UHGV virus genome: UHGV-2135452
Strand: one strand, 5' to 3'
Length of the DNA: 10,619 bases
Origin: a virus
A model generated the notes under the pieces. The model saw nothing but the letters and a program-made list of their open reading frames with translations, was not told the origin of the DNA and did no database searches. Made by a program: the position numbers and the translations under genes. This document shows, piece after piece, positions 292 through 7,549 of this stretch (position 1 is the stretch's first letter; every line of letters starts with the position of its first letter).

Positions 292-412
292 AAAAAAAAT
301 TTTTTTCGAAAGAACTGTTCACACTGTTCACCTTTCTGTTTTCTCCTTTTATTTCAGAGTGATAGATGGTGAATAATGGGTGAAGGGTGAACATTCGATT
401 CTTCACCTCCGG
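292..412. repeat. crr direct repeat 1 (about 120 bp) with TGTTCACC / GGTGAACA type I iterons (alpha binding sites)
   Basis: Begins with an A8T7 tract and contains TGTTCACACTGTTCACC plus inverted GGTGAA copies. Near-identical copy at 473..592, period about 181 bp. Matches P4 crr (two 120-bp direct repeats with type I iterons) downstream of alpha. Confidence 0.7.
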
Positions 413-472
413 CATTCTGCCGGTGTGACTTGTGCAGGGGATTAATTTCCCGTGCTGAAATCACACCGGAAG

Positions 473-592
473 AAAAAAAGTTTTTTTGATTTGATTGTTC
501 ACACTGTTCACCTTTCATTTTTCTCTATTAATTTCAGTGTGATAACGGGTGAATATACGGTGAAGGGTGAACAGTGGATTGTTCACCTTCGG
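473..592. repeat. crr direct repeat 2
   Basis: Second copy of the roughly 120-bp unit with the same iteron arrangement. The inter-repeat segment 420..469 holds a 9-bp inverted repeat, CCGGTGTGA ... TCACACCGG. Confidence 0.7.
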
Positions 593-605
593 GGAATTCA
601 GGGAT

Positions 606-630
606 AAAAAAAGACCGGCAGATGCCGGTC
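606..630 (-). terminator. Rho-independent terminator downstream of alpha
   Basis: On the minus strand: GACCGGCATCTGCCGGTC hairpin followed by TTTTTTT, starting 17 nt after the alpha stop codon. Confidence 0.6.
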
Positions 631-646
631 AGATGAGTCATGATGG

Positions 647-2980
647 TCAGGTTGTTGCAGGGTCGTCACATTTTGGCAGCCAGTCGCCGTAGCTTTCCTC
701 TTTCAGCGTCAGGTTGGTCTGTATCCCCTGTTTGGTATGGCGCTTCTCGTAATTCAGTCCGTATTCCTTCAGCATCACCGGCAGCCCCAGCCCGAACATT
801 TTCAGACTGAGTACATTCCGGTAGCCGTTTGCCTCCATGTAGGCCAGATAGGCGTGATAGAGGTATTTACGGTAATTACGCGGGATGATACTGGCGTTCC
901 CCATATACATGCCGCTGGTCTGCGGCAGGGTTTCCAGATAGCCGATAAAATCAAACGTCGGGTCGGCATCCCGTTTGATGTTCAGTGCCTCGTCTGAGTT
1001 CTGCTGGGACTGAAGCAGTGACCGGGCGAGCATCGGGTCGCTGAACTTCTGCATCAGGTGACGCACGATGACCGCCAGCTCGCGGGTGATTTTGTCCTTA
1101 AGCTGCGGGTCGCGCTCCTGCGGGGCTATCTGTTCCGGGAAGTGAATAATCACCCGCCGGCGTGACACGCCGCCGCTGCGGTCGGTGAAGCGCATCGGGT
1201 TATTGTTCACGGCCAGAATCACCGCCGGGATATGCGTGGAGTACGCATCCCGGTATTTCGGGTCAACGGACACCGCGTCGCCGCCGGTGATGGCCTTGAG
1301 TCCGGCACCGTCGCCGCTCCATTTTTCCTGGTCCGGCAGGCGTATCAGTGAGAAGCCAGTTAACGCGGCACGTTCACGCGGGGATTCCAGCGTCTCGATG
1401 GTGGCCGACGTGGCGTTATCCTCCCCGGCCAGCAGGGTGGCTATTTCGGCCATGATACTTTTGCCGCTGCCGCCGGGACCGGTCACCTCCAGAAAGAGCT
1501 GCCAGTCGTAGCGGTTTGCCAGCACCATAAACAGTGCGGCCAGAATCACGTCGCGTTTTTCCGCACGGCCACCGGCGGCACGGTCAAGCCAGCGCCAGAA
1601 CGCGGGGGCGTGGGTTTCCAGCGTTTCCCCTTCCACCGGCGGGGTGAAATCCACATCGCACAGGGTACGCATCCAGTGTGACGGACTGTGCGGGTGGAAC
1701 GTGCCGTTCTGCGTGTCGAGCACGCCGTTACGAAAGCCAATCAGGCGGCGGGAGGGGGCTTCCTGCTGCGGAATAATCAGCTTCAGGGTGTCCACCACGG
1801 AGGCCACCTTCCCGGAGGAGAACGGCGCGCGCAGACGCTGAAACAGCCCGGCCACATCCCGGGCAAAGTCCTGTGGTGGCAGCACCTTCCAGACACCATT
1901 TTCATAACGGGACAGAAGCTGGCCGTTGGCATCGACCGCGAGCGCCTCGCCGTAATGCTCATAGATACGCATGGCCTTTTCGCTGGTACTCATGGCGGAA
2001 AACTCCGCTTCGCTCATGGTGTCGAACGGGCTTTCAGCCGGTGGCCGGATGGCATCGTAAATGGCCTTACGGGTGGCCTCCCCGCCGTACTGCGTGAAGG
2101 CATCATTCCAGTCACCGAAGACCGGCGGCAGGGCAACAACGCCCTCACACGCATCTGCGGCTGCGGCGGCTTTTGTCTGGCCGTCACCGCTGAGGTCACG
2201 GTCTGCGGCAAGGACAATCTGACAGGCCGGATACTTCTGTCGGGCAAGGCTGGCCAGAGAAAGGAGGTTCACGGAAGAAAGCGCCACCATCACCGTTTCA
2301 CCGGTCAGGTGATGCACGGTAAGTGCGGTCGCGTATCCCTCCGCTATCCACAGACGTTTTCCTGCCTGATTCTGTCCTTCAAGGGTGTGACAGGTGCCCC
2401 TGACCTGTCCGCCTTTCAGGGTGCGCTTACGGCCGTCAGCACTGATTAACTGAAGGTTAACCAGTTCGCCGCTGTCGTCATACAGTGGCACCACAAGGTC
2501 ACCGGCGCGCCAGCTCACGCCACCGGCTCTGTGTGTGCCGGTCAGCATCCGGCATTCCCGGCCGGGAAAGCCCTTGCGGGTCAGGTAGGCGTTACCGGTT
2601 CCGGGACGGGTTTTCGCCATCAGGGTTTGTGCCAGTGCGGCGGCGTTCTTCCGGGCAGCGTCTGTTTCAGCACCGGCGGCAGCCGTCACTGCCGGGTCAG
2701 CCGGGGGCAGGCTGCCGGTCACGGCAGCCACCTTTGCGGCCGCATCGGACGGGGAAACACCAAACACCTTTTCAACCAGTTTCAGGCCGTCACCGGCACC
2801 ACACTGATTGCAGTACCAGGTGCCGCGCCCCTCCCTGTCATCAAAACGGAAGCGGTCACTCCCGCCACAGACCGGACAGGGCTGATGACGGTTTTTCAGC
2901 ACCTGAATCCCCAGCGCCGGGAGAATACGCGGCCAGTGGCCGAGCGCATGGCTGACGGTGGCGGTTACGTTCATTTTCAT
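647..2980 (-). CDS. alpha: P4 alpha-type replication protein (primase / SF3 helicase / origin-binding), 777 aa
   Basis: Length equals P4 alpha. N-terminal zinc-finger CPVCGG...CNQCG, TOPRIM-like AEGYATAL and AADRD, Walker A GPGGSGKS. ATG start; terminator downstream. Confidence 0.95.
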   Translation of the reverse strand: MKMNVTATVSHALGHWPRILPALGIQVLKNRHQPCPVCGGSDRFRFDDREGRGTWYCNQCGAGDGLKLVEKVFGVSPSDAAAKVAAVTGSLPPADPAVTAAAGAETDAARKNAAALAQTLMAKTRPGTGNAYLTRKGFPGRECRMLTGTHRAGGVSWRAGDLVVPLYDDSGELVNLQLISADGRKRTLKGGQVRGTCHTLEGQNQAGKRLWIAEGYATALTVHHLTGETVMVALSSVNLLSLASLARQKYPACQIVLAADRDLSGDGQTKAAAAADACEGVVALPPVFGDWNDAFTQYGGEATRKAIYDAIRPPAESPFDTMSEAEFSAMSTSEKAMRIYEHYGEALAVDANGQLLSRYENGVWKVLPPQDFARDVAGLFQRLRAPFSSGKVASVVDTLKLIIPQQEAPSRRLIGFRNGVLDTQNGTFHPHSPSHWMRTLCDVDFTPPVEGETLETHAPAFWRWLDRAAGGRAEKRDVILAALFMVLANRYDWQLFLEVTGPGGSGKSIMAEIATLLAGEDNATSATIETLESPRERAALTGFSLIRLPDQEKWSGDGAGLKAITGGDAVSVDPKYRDAYSTHIPAVILAVNNNPMRFTDRSGGVSRRRVIIHFPEQIAPQERDPQLKDKITRELAVIVRHLMQKFSDPMLARSLLQSQQNSDEALNIKRDADPTFDFIGYLETLPQTSGMYMGNASIIPRNYRKYLYHAYLAYMEANGYRNVLSLKMFGLGLPVMLKEYGLNYEKRHTKQGIQTNLTLKEESYGDWLPKCDDPATT

Positions 2981-2994
2981 GGTGTTGTTCTCCT

Positions 2995-3315
2995 TCAGTG
3001 CAGTACCGGCGCTTTTATGTGACGGGCACAGAGTTCATCCATCACAACCAGCCCGAGAAAGGACAGCGACGGCGCGGCCTTCAGGGGGCCGGATTCCATT
3101 AAATCTTCCAGCAGGGCACAGGCTATCTGACGCCCTTTTTCCTCACCGTGCTGGCGCAGATAAAAGCCTTCCAGCTCAGCGGCGATGGCAGCCTCCAGTG
3201 ATTCAAGGGTGAGATGCGGGTAGCGGTGCTGACGTTCGCACACGGTCAGCCAGGCACAGGCGACAGCGCGACGGTAAAGGGCTGCGCGTAAGACGGGCGG
3301 TAAGGGGGGGGGCAT
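2995..3315 (-). CDS. Hypothetical protein of the P4-like left operon (epsilon/orf position immediately upstream of alpha), 106 aa
   Basis: ATG at 3315 preceded by GGAGG with 7-nt spacing. Ends 14 nt before the alpha start. Codons 2-4 (PPP) are encoded by a 9-nt G/C homopolymer at 3304..3312. Confidence 0.6.
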
Positions 3316-3450
3316 TTGCTTTCCTCCCTGTGACAGATGACTGCATTCCGTGCCGGTTGCATTAACTGATAAGGCATATCTGCGTCTCCTGAAGACGTGC
3401 GTATCCCTGCGCGAATACGCACATTTAATTTTTCGGGTGTCGTTTTTTAA

Positions 3451-3906
3451 TTACAGATAATTGCGGTAACTGTTATCCGGGGTGATTTCCGGGTCAGGCT
3501 CCGTGCGGGGAATTTCCCGCCATTCCCGCGCCACCGGTGCCGCCCGGCTGACCGGAACAGGGTCCTGCGGGTAAATATCCAGATATTTCTCCCGCCATTT
3601 CTGTAATTCCGGGTCTCCGGCCATTTCTTTCAGTACCGCATGCCGGTTTACGGGGCTGCGTCTGAACAGGTCAGGACGGTCACAGGTAAATTCCCGCAGA
3701 AAACGCCCCAGCGGGATGTCTGTGGTGCGCCCGTCAGCGAGGATACGCACAAGGATACTGAATTTACGGCGGTACGGATTCCAGACAATGTCCGGGCAGC
3801 GGTACGGCATTTCCCACGGAATACCGTCTTCCAGAATGCCGACCACGGCCACATCGGGAAAACCGGCAGAACGGTAAATCTCACCGGGCTGGGGAAAATC
3901 AAACAT
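3451..3906 (-). CDS. Hypothetical protein, 151 aa (same length as P4 orf151; assignment tentative)
   Basis: ATG at 3906 preceded by GGGGAG. Start overlaps the stop of the upstream ORF (ATGTTTGA), suggesting translational coupling within the left operon. Confidence 0.6.
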   Translation of the reverse strand: MFDFPQPGEIYRSAGFPDVAVVGILEDGIPWEMPYRCPDIVWNPYRRKFSILVRILADGRTTDIPLGRFLREFTCDRPDLFRRSPVNRHAVLKEMAGDPELQKWREKYLDIYPQDPVPVSRAAPVAREWREIPRTEPDPEITPDNSYRNYL

Positions 3907-4342
3907 GCGTCCTGTCTCCCCGGTCTTTCTGCTGGGCGAGAAAATCGCGGCACAGGCCTTTGGCTTTCAGCTCATTCAGCACAAAATCAATATCTTCATT
4001 CAGGTAGCTGAAAATATGCGGAATGTAGAGCTGATGCAGGCCGGAGAGTTCACGGTGAATCAAATCACCCCCAACAAACTGGGATACGGCGCTGGCGCGG
4101 TTGAGCTTATGGTAAGCCTCAATGCTGAGGTGTTCACGGGCGTCATGACGTGCTGAGACGGTCTGAGGGGCTTTTTTATTACGCACGGGACACCTCCACC
4201 ACCGGCAGACGGGCAGCAAGGGAGAGCACATAGTCACGGACAAGGGAACGGCGGGCGCTGCGTTCATCACCGGCGACGGTGCGAAGCATGCAGATACGGG
4301 GATGACGGTCTGCGCGACGGACAGCCGCAAACACAAAGACAA
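3899..4342 (-). CDS. Hypothetical protein, first ORF downstream of the immunity region (kil/eta position); N-terminus uncertain
   Basis: Open frame whose stop overlaps the start of the 151-aa ORF. The track start at 4342 is TTG; in-frame ATGs at 4267 and 4231; none has a clear Shine-Dalgarno. Confidence 0.4.
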
Positions 4343-4384
4343 ATTCAGGGTGTGAAGGGGTAAGGGTTGTAGCCATAAGGCAGT

Positions 4385-4430
4385 CTCCTTCGAGTAGCAA
4401 ATAACTGCTATCGCCGGAGTTCCTACGCTC
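4385..4430 (-). promoter_or_regulatory. seqC-like target element of the P4-type immunity system
   Basis: CCTTCGAG (4387..4394) and GTTCCTACGC (4419..4428) are both complementary to blocks in the seqB region. A 9-bp inverted repeat, GCTATCGCC ... GGCGATAGC (4408..4442), encloses the second block. Confidence 0.45.
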
Positions 4431-4439
4431 GATGGCGAT

Positions 4440-4520
4440 AGCCCAGACGGGGGTAGGAATACCGGCCTCGAAGAATACCGGCCAGCCCGGAGGCTGCCCC
4501 GCCTGAGCTACCATTGACTC
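4440..4520 (-). ncRNA. cI: Candidate cI-type immunity RNA (contains seqB); boundaries approximate
   Basis: seqB blocks GTAGGAA (4453..4459) and CTCGAAG (4467..4473) are reverse-complementary to the repeated blocks in seqA and seqC, in nested antiparallel arrangement. Position about 215-245 nt downstream of the predicted P_LE start matches the P4 layout. Confidence 0.45.
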
Positions 4521-4643
4521 AGTGGCATAACATGCGATTGCGAACAGGATCATACCTGCACGGCAAACCACACGCCACACCATAATCTGGCGCTCTGTGG
4601 CGTTGATTGCGACACAAAAAAAGACGCATGGCGCGTCATATGT

Positions 4644-4672
4644 CGCCTTCGAGTTACACGGGTTCCTACGCC
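4644..4672 (-). promoter_or_regulatory. seqA-like target element in the left-operon leader
   Basis: CCTTCGAG (4646..4653) and GTTCCTACGC (4662..4671), direct repeats of the seqC blocks and complementary to seqB. Lies 20-50 nt downstream of the predicted P_LE start. Confidence 0.45.
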
Positions 4673-4700
4673 CGGCTGCCGATTTTGCGGCAGCGGAAAA

Positions 4701-4730
4701 ACTATATCCGCAAATGCCGGAAAAAGGCAA
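4701..4730 (-). promoter_or_regulatory. Candidate sigma70 promoter (P_LE-like) for the immunity/alpha operon
   Basis: On the minus strand: -35 TTGCCT (4730..4725), 18-bp spacer, -10 TATAGT (4706..4701). Sits just after the vis stop and just before seqA. Confidence 0.45.
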
Positions 4731-4765
4731 GCCAGAAAAAGGGACTTTTTGCAGAGCGGGCATCA

Positions 4766-5032
4766 TCATGCGTCGTACCCCCGTTTGCGTCCGGCAATGC
4801 GCCCGGCCATCCATGCGGTGACTTCAGAGTGCAGCCAGGCCACATTTTTACCGCCAAGACTCACCTGCGGCGGAAATTCCCCCTTACGGATGAGTTCATA
4901 GATGGTCGAGCGTGACAGGCCGCACAGGTGCATCACTTCCGGCAGACGTAAAAAACGCTCCTGCGTGATGTCCGGCAGCGGCATCAGTGGCGTAACAGGG
5001 GCGGGAGACGGGGAAGAAAAAACAGCTTGCAT
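4766..5032 (-). CDS. vis: Vis / AlpA-family HTH regulator-excisionase, 88 aa
   Basis: AlpA/Xis-like HTH core [47 protein letters not shown] at 5032 preceded by GAGG. First gene downstream of the P_LL-like promoter, as in P4. Confidence 0.8.
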
Positions 5033-5084
5033 CGGGCTACCTCGTTAATGTCCATACAGCACCGGATAAGTCCGTCCGGCTTCG

Positions 5085-5152
5085 GGTAGCGCTTTATTTT
5101 GTGAATATTTTCAGCAGACGCAACAGGGGGGATTTGTTCCGGCAGCCTTACA
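5085..5152 (-). promoter_or_regulatory. Candidate Delta/Ogr-activated late promoter (P_LL-like)
   Basis: TGT-N12-ACA dyad at 5135..5152 (TGTTCCGGCAGCCTTACA), about 55 bp upstream of an AT-rich -10 region on the minus strand and about 100 bp upstream of vis. Confidence 0.5.
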
Positions 5153-5310
5153 ATGGCTGTGCATTTTTTGTACATCAGCGCCAGATAGCTTTAAAACGCT
5201 CTGGAAGGAGCTGGAAAAAATTATAGTGAAATACAAATTGTTTTTTCTTATTTATTTCAGTGAATTAATAAAAATAAAAAGTAATAAACAGCACAAAAAG
5301 CCCATCAACG

Positions 5311-5339
5311 GGTGAACAGTGGTGAACAGAGGTGAACAG
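5311..5339. other. ori1-like cluster of three 10-bp-phased type I iterons (GGTGAACAG x3) in an AT-rich tract
   Basis: GGTGAACAGT GGTGAACAGA GGTGAACAGT at 5311..5340. Same octamer as the crr iterons. Flanked by a very AT-rich segment at 5220..5310. About 4.8 kb from crr, consistent with P4 ori1-crr spacing. Confidence 0.55.
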
Positions 5340-5417
5340 TAAAATATAAAAAAACAAACAGTAAGCCGGTTTTTCCTGCGACCTTTTCCTGGCTTGCCGG
5401 TCTGAGGATGAGTCTCC

Positions 5418-5482
5418 TGTGTCAGGGCTGGCACATCTGCAATGCGTCGTGTTGCTGTCCGGTGTACGTCACAATTTTCTCA
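5418..5482 (+). promoter_or_regulatory. Candidate Delta/Ogr-activated late promoter (P_sid-like)
   Basis: TGT-N12-ACA dyad at 5418..5435 (TGTGTCAGGGCTGGCACA), about 90 bp upstream of the sid ATG and divergent from the P_LL-like dyad. Confidence 0.55.
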
Positions 5483-5507
5483 ACCTGAAGTGACGAGGAG
5501 CCGGAAA

Positions 5508-6242
5508 ATGTCTGACAACACCATCCCTGAATATCTGCAACCCGCACTGGCACAACTGGAAAAGGCCAGAGCCGCTCATCTTGAGAACGCCCGCCTGATG
5601 GATGAGACCGTCACGGCCATTGAACGGGCAGAGCAGGAAAAAAATGCGCTGACGCAGGCCGACGGAAATGACGCTGACGACTGGCGCACGGCCTTTCGTG
5701 CAGCCGGTGGTGTCCTGAGCGACGAGCTGAAACAGCGCCACATTGAGCGCGTGGCACGCCGGGAGCTGGTACAGGAATATGACAATCTGGCCGTGGTGCT
5801 GAATTTCGAACGTGAACGCCTGAAAGGGGCGTGTGACAGCACGGCCACCGCCTACCGGAAGGCACATCATCACCTTCTGAGTCTGTATGCAGAGCATGAG
5901 CTGGAACACGCCCTGAATGAAACCTGTGAGGCGCTTGTCCGGGCAATGCATCTGAGCATTCTGGTACAGGAAAATCCGCTCGCCAACACCACCGGCCATC
6001 AGGGCTACGTCGCACCGGAAAAGGCTGTCATGCAGCAGGTGAAATCATCGCTGGAACAGAAAATTAAACAGATGCAAATCAGCCTCACCGGCGAGCCGGT
6101 TCTCCGGCTGACCGGACTGTCAGCGGCAACACTCCCGCACATGGATTATGAGGTGGCAGGCACACCGGCACAGCGCAAGGTGTGGCAGGACAAAATAGAC
6201 CAGCAGGGAGCAGAGCTGAAGGCCAGAGGACTGCTGTCATGA
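5508..6242 (+). CDS. sid: Sid capsid size determination (external scaffold) protein, 244 aa
   Basis: Begins MSDNTIPEYLQPALAQLEKARAAHLENARLMDETV, recognised as P4 Sid. GAGGAG 7 nt upstream of ATG 5508. The track ORF starts earlier at 5442 but has no Shine-Dalgarno. Stop overlaps the delta start (ATGA). Confidence 0.9.
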   Translation: MSDNTIPEYLQPALAQLEKARAAHLENARLMDETVTAIERAEQEKNALTQADGNDADDWRTAFRAAGGVLSDELKQRHIERVARRELVQEYDNLAVVLNFERERLKGACDSTATAYRKAHHHLLSLYAEHELEHALNETCEALVRAMHLSILVQENPLANTTGHQGYVAPEKAVMQQVKSSLEQKIKQMQISLTGEPVLRLTGLSAATLPHMDYEVAGTPAQRKVWQDKIDQQGAELKARGLLS

Positions 6243-6739
6243 TTTACTGCCCGTCGTGTGGACATGTTGCTCACACCCGTCGCGCACATTTCATGGACGA
6301 TGGCACCAAGATAATGATTGCACAGTGCCGGAATATTTATTGCTCTGCGACATTTGAAGCGAGTGAAAGCTTTTTCTCTGACTGTAAAGATTCAGGAATG
6401 GAATACATTTCAGGCAAACAGAGATACCGCGATTCACTGACGTCAGCCTCCGGCAGCATGAAGCGCCCGAAAAGAATGCTTGTTACCGGATATTGTTGTC
6501 GGAGATGTAAAGGCCTTGCGCTGTCAAGAACATCGCGGGGTCTGTCTCAGGAAGTCACCGAGCGTTTTTATGTGTGCACGGATCCGGGCTGTGGTCTGGT
6601 GTTTAAAACGCTTCAGACCATCACCCGCTTCATTGTCCGCCCGGTCACGCCGGACGAACTGGCAGAACGCCTGCATGAAAAACAGGAACTGCCGCCAGTA
6701 CGGTTAAAAACACAATCATATTCGCTGCGTCTGGAATGA
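6239..6739 (+). CDS. delta: Delta late transcription activator (tandem Ogr-like zinc finger), 166 aa
   Basis: Begins MIYCPSCGH. Two C4 zinc-finger units (CPSCGH...CRNIYC and CRRCKG...CTDPGC). Length equals P4 Delta. The track ORF starts at 6182, but ATG 6239 overlapping the sid stop is the likely start. Confidence 0.9.
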   Translation: MIYCPSCGHVAHTRRAHFMDDGTKIMIAQCRNIYCSATFEASESFFSDCKDSGMEYISGKQRYRDSLTSASGSMKRPKRMLVTGYCCRRCKGLALSRTSRGLSQEVTERFYVCTDPGCGLVFKTLQTITRFIVRPVTPDELAERLHEKQELPPVRLKTQSYSLRLE

Positions 6740-6812
6740 GGGCTGCCGGTTAACACCGGCCGTCGCCACACACCGTATTTTTATTCTTCAGCATGATGAG
6801 AAAGAGATAACG

Positions 6813-7385
6813 ATGGAAAGCACAGCCTTACAGCAGGCCTTTGACACCTGTCAGAATAACAAAGCAGCATGGCTGCAACGCAAAAATGAGCTGGCAGCGG
6901 CCGAACAGGAATACCTGCGGCTTCTGTCAGGAGAAGGCAGAAACGTCAGTCGCCTGGACGAATTACGCAATATTATCGAAGTCAGAAAATGGCAGGTGAA
7001 TCAGGCCGCCGGTCGTTATATTCGTTCGCATGAAGCCGTTCAGCACATCAGCATCCGCGACCGGCTGAATGATTTTATGCAGCAGCACGGCACAGCACTG
7101 GCGGCGGCACTGGCACCGGAGCTGATGGGCTACAGTGAGCTGACGGCCATTGCCCGAAACTGTGCCATACAGCGTGCCACAGATGCCCTGCGTGAAGCCC
7201 TTCTGTCCTGGCTTGCGAAGGGGGAAAAAATTAATTATTCCGCACAGGATAGCGACATTTTAACGACCATCGGATTCAGGCCTGACGCGGCTTCGGTGGA
7301 CGACAGCCGTGAAAAATTCACCCCTGCGCAGAACATGATTTTTTCGCGTAAAAGTGCGCAACTGGCATCACGTCAGTCTGTGTAA
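6813..7385 (+). CDS. psu: Psu polarity suppression / capsid decoration protein, 190 aa
   Basis: Length and sequence (MESTALQQAFDTCQNNKAAW ... ASRQSV) as recalled for P4 Psu. Last gene of the sid operon, immediately before cos. Confidence 0.9.
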   Translation: MESTALQQAFDTCQNNKAAWLQRKNELAAAEQEYLRLLSGEGRNVSRLDELRNIIEVRKWQVNQAAGRYIRSHEAVQHISIRDRLNDFMQQHGTALAAALAPELMGYSELTAIARNCAIQRATDALREALLSWLAKGEKINYSAQDSDILTTIGFRPDAASVDDSREKFTPAQNMIFSRKSAQLASRQSV

Positions 7386-7420
7386 AATTTCCCGAAAATC
7401 CGCCTGTTTTTACTGAAAAA

Positions 7421-7447
7421 AGCCATGCATCGATAAGGTGCATGGCT
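7421..7447 (+). terminator. Candidate terminator hairpin downstream of psu
   Basis: AGCCATGCA-TCGATAAGG-TGCATGGCT stem-loop preceded by an A-run and followed by a short T-rich stretch (TTTG). The T-tract is weak. Confidence 0.35.
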
Positions 7448-7549
7448 TTGCATGCGTTTCCCTGCCTCATTTTCTGCAGACCGCGCCATTCCCGGCGCGG
7501 TCTGAGCGTGTCAGTGCAACTGCATTAAAACCGCCCCGCAAAGCGTGCG

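Follow-up and report, generated by a model that had tools for sequence, protein, structure and literature searches.

The window, the whole 10,619-nucleotide stretch of viral DNA analysed here (UHGV-2135452), contains two short sequence blocks that recur as direct repeats with their reverse complements in between. The locus raises the question of whether these blocks form an RNA immunity circuit and, if so, which elements it would recognize. An earlier note on this DNA had proposed the architecture of the cI RNA immunity mechanism of satellite phage P4. That proposal is borne out by Rfam matches, by alignment and gene order with P4, by compensatory substitutions and by the equivalences given in the literature, and we consider it highly probable that a P4-like satellite has its immunity region here and uses the P4 mechanism with recognition boxes of another allele. 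Beyond what the earlier note contained, we found an intrinsic terminator, an overlap of seqC with the kil Shine-Dalgarno sequence, an eta ORF that encloses the circuit, and boxes unlike those of P4. The P4-type circuit itself is textbook antisense-RNA immunity, already known since the 1990s; modest novelty lies only in how widely the boxes vary and reassort across the population.

To place the locus in its genomic context, the window was compared with P4 (X51522), to which it is ~97% identical over 293..7549, with the P4 cos junction at 7549/7550. ORF lengths and order are as in P4 (alpha, 777 aa; cnr, 106 aa; orf151; epsilon, 95 aa; orf88/vis), and sid, delta and psu are found on the opposite strand after orf88/vis, again as in P4. 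The neighbours of the immunity region also follow the P4 order of vis, eta/kil, epsilon, orf151, cnr and alpha, and the downstream left-operon families were recognized as Pfam Derepression and DUF5375 matches, with epsilon matching PF25738. Past cos to the right, the sequence is no longer that of P4; this part encodes a tyrosine integrase of 403 aa as well as a SIR2-like hotspot protein, and includes the 3' end of ssrA. The same element was found in about seven complete E. coli genomes, and E. coli 2022H047 (NZ_AP029605) is one of its carriers. On this sequence evidence, we assign the window to a P4-like satellite prophage of E. coli, inserted at ssrA.

Several features outside the immunity region distinguish the element from P4. 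The integrase gene (9141-10619, minus strand) adjoins the 3' end of ssrA (tmRNA; 77 bits), a junction shared by the ~7 complete E. coli genomes; the P4 integrase is longer, at 440 aa, and no homology links its region to the integrase region of the window. Within the hotspot between cos and int (7756-9113, minus strand), the SIR2-like gene (8244..9113, 289 aa) matches only positions 10-286 of the 517-position PADLOC profile PDC-S25 and is followed by a 137-aa ORF without a family match; this hotspot gene may be split or truncated. Besides the immunity region, differences from P4 cluster in the replication origin (5100-5400; 116 differences, including an indel of ~55 bp), and 33 differences were counted in crr (400-700). 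The divergence of origin and crr may reflect a different replicon specificity.

The features of the immunity region are collected in Table 1. The sigma70 promoter described in the earlier note, TTGCCT-18-TATAGT on the minus strand, was recovered by a promoter scan as the sole sigma-70-like site in 4200..5500, and its hexamers and spacer are the same as those of P4 P_LE in the pairwise alignment. Transcription is predicted to start near 4694, which is also where the match to the Rfam isrK model begins. The leader RNA downstream of this position folds so that box b of seqA is displayed in a hairpin loop and box a is single-stranded, and an intrinsic terminator stands directly after seqA. We take this terminator to be the t1 site of Briani et al. 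2000, at which termination reportedly depends on CI and seqA. Across relatives, the leader helices are 99-100% paired, and the leader hairpins, the terminator and the hairpin that presents seqC are together maintained at 99.2%.

Table 1. Features of the immunity region, with positions in the window, and the recognition boxes of the window and of P4.
Feature	Position	Strand	Window sequence	P4 sequence	Basis or remark
vis / AlpA-family gene (orf88)	4766..5032	minus			Pfam PF05930 Phage_AlpA, E = 7e-21
eta ORF (196 aa)	4179..4769	minus	ATGATGATG (start, 4769..4761)		start overlaps vis stop codon
P_LE-type constitutive promoter	4701..4730	minus	-35 TTGCCT (4730..4725), -10 TATAGT (4706..4701)		18-nt spacer
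c4-a1b1	4655..4707	minus			Rfam RF03163, 49.1 bits (gathering 46.7)
seqA leader RNA (IsrK-like)	4617..4694	minus			Rfam isrK RF01394, 72.3 bits (gathering 50), model positions 1-77
seqA hairpin 1	4694..4675	minus			fold
seqA hairpin 2	4674..4659	minus	box b GUAGGAA (4668..4662)		box b in loop
seqA box a	4653..4646	minus	CUCGAAGG		single-stranded in fold
Intrinsic terminator after seqA	4637..4623 (stem)	minus	U7 after stem		terminator scan and fold
cI RNA (C4 antisense RNA family)	4431..4518	minus			Rfam RF01695, 74.4 bits (gathering 45)
cI long closing stem with two internal hairpins	4512..4437	minus			fold
cI box a'	4474..4467	minus	UCUUCGAG		loop of second hairpin; part of seqB
cI box b'	4459..4453	minus	UUCCUAC		single-stranded junction; part of seqB
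seqC-presenting hairpin	4407..4442	minus	GCUAUCGCC / GGCGAUAGC		seqC box b in loop
seqC	4387..4425	minus	box b GUAGGAA (4425..4419); box a CUCGAAGG (4394..4387)
kil (65 aa, Icd-like)	4179..4376	minus	AUG at 4376		8 nt after Shine-Dalgarno; translation
Box b in seqA and seqC			GUAGGAA	GUGAGAA	pairwise alignment
Box b' in seqB			UUCCUAC	UUCUCAC	pairwise alignment
Box a in seqA and seqC			CUCGAAGG	UUCACAGG	pairwise alignment
Box a' in seqB			UCUUCGAG	CCUGUGAA	pairwise alignment

The isrK model is matched end to end (72 bits) and the seqA RNA has its own intrinsic terminator, both of which would fit an RNA that is more than a passive target and that acts in trans as Gifsy-1 IsrK does, or else titrates cI as a decoy. 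IsrK works in trans in Salmonella (PMC4825925), and IsrK-like elements of P4-like prophages were required in a TraDIS analysis of S. Typhi (PMC3632133). However, a transposon in seqA also parts cI from P_LE, so that TraDIS cannot separate the two roles, and no target of the anrP/orf45 type is present in the window. We hold an active seqA RNA as a tentative possibility, one that would be compatible with the P4-type circuit and would not replace it.

Downstream of the terminator, the minus-strand transcript contains a putative cI RNA of ~76-88 nt. The earlier note had expected a small RNA from 4440..4520, and these bounds have to be replaced by 4431..4518. The cI fold has a minimum free energy of -48 kcal/mol (z = -4.7) and is 100% maintained across relatives (27 pairs, 8 of them with compensatory change). 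As the earlier note had called for, the minus-strand RNA was folded, and both cI and the leader were found to display their boxes in loops or single-stranded stretches. Alignment with P4 likewise placed promoter, seqA, cI/seqB and seqC at homologous positions of X51522, and P4 itself gave C4 and isrK matches at homologous positions with the Rfam covariance models. The Rfam C4 family includes P4 CI, and isrK is the family of the structural homolog of the P4 seqA RNA, in line with the published equivalence of CI with C4 and the description of seqA as IsrK-like (PMC3632133, PMC4825925, PMC10111431).

Box a of seqC overlaps the Shine-Dalgarno sequence of kil (AAGGAG, 4390..4385), and its box b is held in the loop of a separate hairpin, which is 98.6% paired across relatives with three compensatory pairs. 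The 9-bp inverted repeat that forms this hairpin was noticed before; it exists, with arms at 4407..4415 and 4434..4442, one base off the start at 4408 that had been assigned to it. The 5' arm of the hairpin is the 3' arm of the cI closing stem (six shared alignment columns, 272-277). Because this arm is shared, the cI stem and the seqC-presenting hairpin are mutually exclusive.

The repeated blocks are confined to the expected places. On the plus strand, CCTTCGAG occurs only at 4387 and 4646 and GTTCCTACGC only at 4419 and 4662, and between these direct repeats lie the reverse complements GTAGGAA (4453) and CTCGAAG (4467), in the mirrored order that antiparallel pairing needs. Both boxes are exact 7-8-nt complements in the seqA-seqB and in the seqB-seqC duplex. 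To evaluate this arrangement against chance, 20,000 dinucleotide-preserving shuffles of the 319-nt transcript were searched. In 491 of the 20,000 shuffles, a single 7-mer in the centre had its reverse complement on either side; two such 7-mers were present in 18, and the mirrored order seen in the window was obtained once (1/20,000), so that the complementarity exceeds the shuffled-sequence expectation, as the earlier reading required. A duplex-energy test of cI against the leader and the downstream segment was significant but weaker (z = -2.7 and -4.1), since the energies are governed largely by GC-rich stems, and the shuffle test of the mirrored-box architecture was used for this reason.

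To learn whether the pairing is maintained, we collected 80 loci via the adjacent Vis protein, added a small number of distant loci from enterobacteria, and built an alignment of 58 distinct regions. A search of genome contigs with a strict cI pattern yielded no more than 12 loci, and those outside the enterobacteria resemble chance matches. In the 58 regions, 98.0% of the cells of the seqA·seqB duplex are paired, with compensatory change at 12 of 15 pairs, compared with 41-52% in slid-register controls; for seqB·seqC, 99.5% are paired, with compensatory change at 11 of 14 pairs (slid-register controls, 36-48%). The related sequences are close relatives and shuffle controls overstate the significance, for which reason our argument rests on the slid-register control and on compensatory changes among multiple alleles. 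An alignment-free survey, to which 120 metagenome and 120 IMG/VR loci were added, covered 237 unique regions. Both cI boxes were fully paired at both targets in 213 of these (90%), and a cI of foreign type paired fully in 1% of trials.

Differences between the window and P4 are concentrated at 4300..4700, where they amount to 7 to 27 per 100 bases versus 0 to 3 in neighbouring stretches, and they include both recognition boxes (Table 1). The cI of the window leaves three non-pairs with P4 seqA and three with P4 seqC, and none with either of its own targets; P4 cI leaves three and two non-pairs with the corresponding targets of the window. Because both boxes differ in seqA, seqB and seqC together, we infer that the two belong to different immunity groups, and the window element is probably heteroimmune to P4. 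With three mismatches in 14-15 pairs, partial cross-repression between P4 and the window element might still occur. The exact cI of the window was found in 149 complete E. coli genome records and that of P4 in 206, and both alleles are thus common in nature.

The same survey of 237 unique regions yielded 51 box combinations, built from 26 alleles of box a and 8 of box b, and 49 allele quartets show all four combinations with the boxes still matched at the three sites, which all lie within an ORF that has to remain open. We regard it as evenly balanced whether the two boxes form a combinatorial barcode of specificity, one that diversifies among natural satellites; under that reading, the allele of the window (UCUUCGAG / UUCCUAC) would be one common immunity group. 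A broad survey of P4-like elements (PMC8628076) makes no mention of RNA or immunity specificity. If the barcode reading is true, competition between satellites would drive the formation of many mutually heteroimmune groups. Given the matched box changes, P4-like satellites, which a large fraction of E. coli genomes carry, probably comprise many immunity groups, and this would affect the coexistence and displacement of satellites and hence which defence hotspots travel along.

The box differences could alternatively be neutral, in which case the same circuit would make P4 and the element co-immune, and drift and hitch-hiking would account for the alleles. Several foreign combinations leave only one non-pair per target if G·U pairs are allowed, the box-b alleles differ by two adjacent bases so that G·U intermediates are possible, and a few natural loci have a mismatched seqA. 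Against this, both boxes have changed in concert in seqA, seqB and seqC, a cI pairs fully with its own targets at the rate given above for the 237 regions as opposed to the rare full pairing of a foreign cI, and the persistence of matching in the 49 quartets points to selection on exact matching. P4 and phiR73 are also said to be heteroimmune through this region. In P1 and P7, differences in c4, an RNA of the same family, underlie heteroimmunity (PMC12197685). Neutral boxes are accordingly an unlikely explanation, and we retain the reading of the boxes as those of another specificity allele.

Individual loci illustrate the variation of this region. Two of them (L083 and L034, ~1830-2175) carry seqA boxes of another allele with seqB and seqC still matched; they look like natural recombinants, in which the seqA mismatch seems to be tolerated, at least transiently. 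An IMG/VR contig (L224, 6763-10210) contains two tandem vis-eta immunity modules, 2.6 kb apart, that differ in both boxes, and the first of these modules has imperfect seqA and seqC matches. Co-resident satellites were represented by this tandem pair and by one two-element genome (L045 and L090, with both boxes different), which are too few for a rule. The spacer between terminator and cI (4519-4616, minus strand; alignment columns 125-190) occurs as two haplotypes, distinguished by a 9-nt indel and many substitutions, whose assortment is independent of the box alleles; loci of the L017 type have a third form, which is much shorter.

We propose that the circuit works as summarised for P4 (PMC4825925, PMC3632133, PMC10111431). 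In a lysogen, the constitutive P_LE would transcribe the leader, and a cI RNA of ~80 nt would be cut from it and accumulate, as P4 cI is made by processing of the leader transcript (PMC4825925, PMC10111431). This RNA would expose box a' in a hairpin loop and box b' as single strand, and on new P_LE transcripts the two would pair, in mirrored order, with boxes b and a of seqA just before the intrinsic terminator, where pairing would favour a stop. The cI boxes would likewise pair with seqC, with its box b in a hairpin loop and its box a over the ribosome-binding site of kil. This second pairing would block translation of kil, and transcription of the untranslated RNA would end ahead of epsilon, orf151, cnr and the alpha primase gene. 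With the left operon silent, the prophage would be kept from replicating, and the repression would extend to an incoming element whose boxes are the same. If the upstream late promoter were active, ribosomes would translate eta through the region and transcription would read through. Here, cI processing, cI-dependent termination and the immunity phenotype are inferred by analogy with P4. The layout on which this proposal is built comprises P_LE upstream of the leader, a cI of C4 fold, a two-box seqB mirrored to seqA and seqC, a seqC at the start of kil nested in eta and, by sequence, the P4 left-operon gene order downstream.

Repression could also be purely translational, as in P1 c4-icd-ant, with the kil ribosome-binding site blocked, coupling lost and no antisense-dependent termination. 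The overlap of seqC box a with the kil Shine-Dalgarno sequence, the Icd-like nature of Kil and the match to the c4-a1b1 model would all suit such a scheme. However, it leaves the conserved intrinsic terminator directly after seqA without a part, and P4 is described as showing premature termination, with read-through when eta is translated (PMC4825925, PMC10111431). The two views moreover overlap, Rho-dependent termination being the presumed result of the translation block. We consider a mechanism of translation only to be very unlikely and favour the P4-type circuit with termination.

The whole circuit is enclosed in a reading frame. The eta frame extends across P_LE, seqA, the terminator, cI and seqC, and its last part is kil, whose product matches the Icd-like family NF033153 of NCBIfam over residues 12-59 (E = 1.6e-21) and is the counterpart of P4 Kil; kil is predicted to be the first gene translated from P_LE transcripts. 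Directly upstream of eta and coupled to it lies vis, with P4 ORF88 at the homologous position. In the 58 aligned sequences, eight stops were counted in the eta frame upstream of the kil ATG, versus 285 and 142 in the other two frames; the frame is stop-free in 55 of the 58, its indels keep the frame, and the ORF has a length of 196 or 199 aa in 59 of the 80 loci. We had considered this long ORF over RNA genes to be an annotation over-call, and rejected this since the frame is open in 55 of 58 relatives and corresponds to P4 eta. Because the ORF is P4 eta and has been kept open, the RNA circuit sits in a maintained reading frame, and the eta frame limits the possible box alleles. The passages of PMC10111431 that treat this region, citing Forti 1999, describe P_LE as internal to eta, Kil as a truncated Eta, and translation of eta as preventing the termination of late-promoter transcripts.

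That the repeats are a mere by-product of eta coding, or of an old duplication, without RNA function is suggested by their position inside a maintained ORF and is nonetheless barely credible, as protein coding does not predict compensatory substitutions 180-230 nt apart on complementary sense, three RNA families are matched by covariance models, pairing falls to 36-52% in slid-register controls, and the full pairing with own targets in the alignment-free survey (213/237) contradicts it. The locus, read as a P4-type circuit, is a compact natural case of programmable two-site RNA recognition inside a coding frame.

Current annotation covers only part of this arrangement. An identical immunity region is present in the record NZ_CP025916.1 (locus L096; 6300-6890, equal to 4179-4769 of the window), at another chromosomal site and with another hotspot than in the window. 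The RefSeq annotation over this region has no ncRNA feature for cI or seqA, and contains only the 196-aa eta ORF as 'host cell division inhibitor Icd-like protein'. Where an Icd-like CDS is annotated and the RNA genes are not, the annotation misses the regulatory core of a mobile element that is very common in E. coli.

Related circuits are known from several other elements. The leader of the window matches the isrK model over its full length; the seqA RNA has been described as a structural homolog of IsrK, with STnc1160 suggested as the CI counterpart (PMC4825925). Gifsy-1 IsrK of Salmonella activates translation of orf45-anrP in trans, whereas orf45 and anrP are absent from the window. The anti-immunity region (CB RNA) of the N15 family, in phiKO2 and PY54, is ~77-80% identical in nucleotide sequence to the cI and seqA segments; these phages are linear plasmid-prophages whose RNA controls an antirepressor. 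The matching segments in phiKO2 (32519-32744), PY54 (23608-23833) and several Klebsiella phages (77-80% identity) carry no annotation or are labelled 'transcriptional repressor' or Icd-like. A query of cI plus seqC also matches ~890 places on E. coli plasmids (e.g., NZ_CP098198.1, 93110-93225), adjoining genes annotated as 'ash family protein'; C4-type RNAs are thus widespread on plasmids.

The immI system of P1 and P7 shares the Rfam clan (C4, c4-a1b1) and a two-box antisense RNA processed from the transcript under its control. It also has an Icd-like first gene downstream, and box differences give heteroimmunity (PMC12197685). The window contains a c4-type RNA, upstream a1/b1 targets (RF03163) and an Icd-like first gene (NF033153). 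The immI effector is the ant antirepressor, whereas that of the window is the P4 left operon (epsilon derepression protein and alpha primase), and the output of P4 is described as transcription termination, unlike that of immI. No ant gene coupled downstream of icd is present in the window, where epsilon (PF25738) is followed by orf151, cnr and alpha instead; the window would therefore work like immI without being a member of it.

The closest likeness is to P4 itself. Its immunity region has the same promoter hexamers, RNA folds, order and spacing, nested kil/eta ORFs and downstream left operon, and differs in both recognition boxes of seqA, seqB and seqC. The spacer between terminator and cI is of a different haplotype, and because of its 9-nt indel Eta has 199 aa in P4 and 196 aa in the window; the position of the window element at ssrA, its integrase and its hotspot are also unlike those of P4. 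Retronphage phiR73, a P4-like element, is reportedly heteroimmune to P4 through the immunity region (Sabbattini et al. 1996, Virology 216:389). This retronphage would be the same kind of natural variant as the window element, a P4-type circuit with altered specificity determinants.
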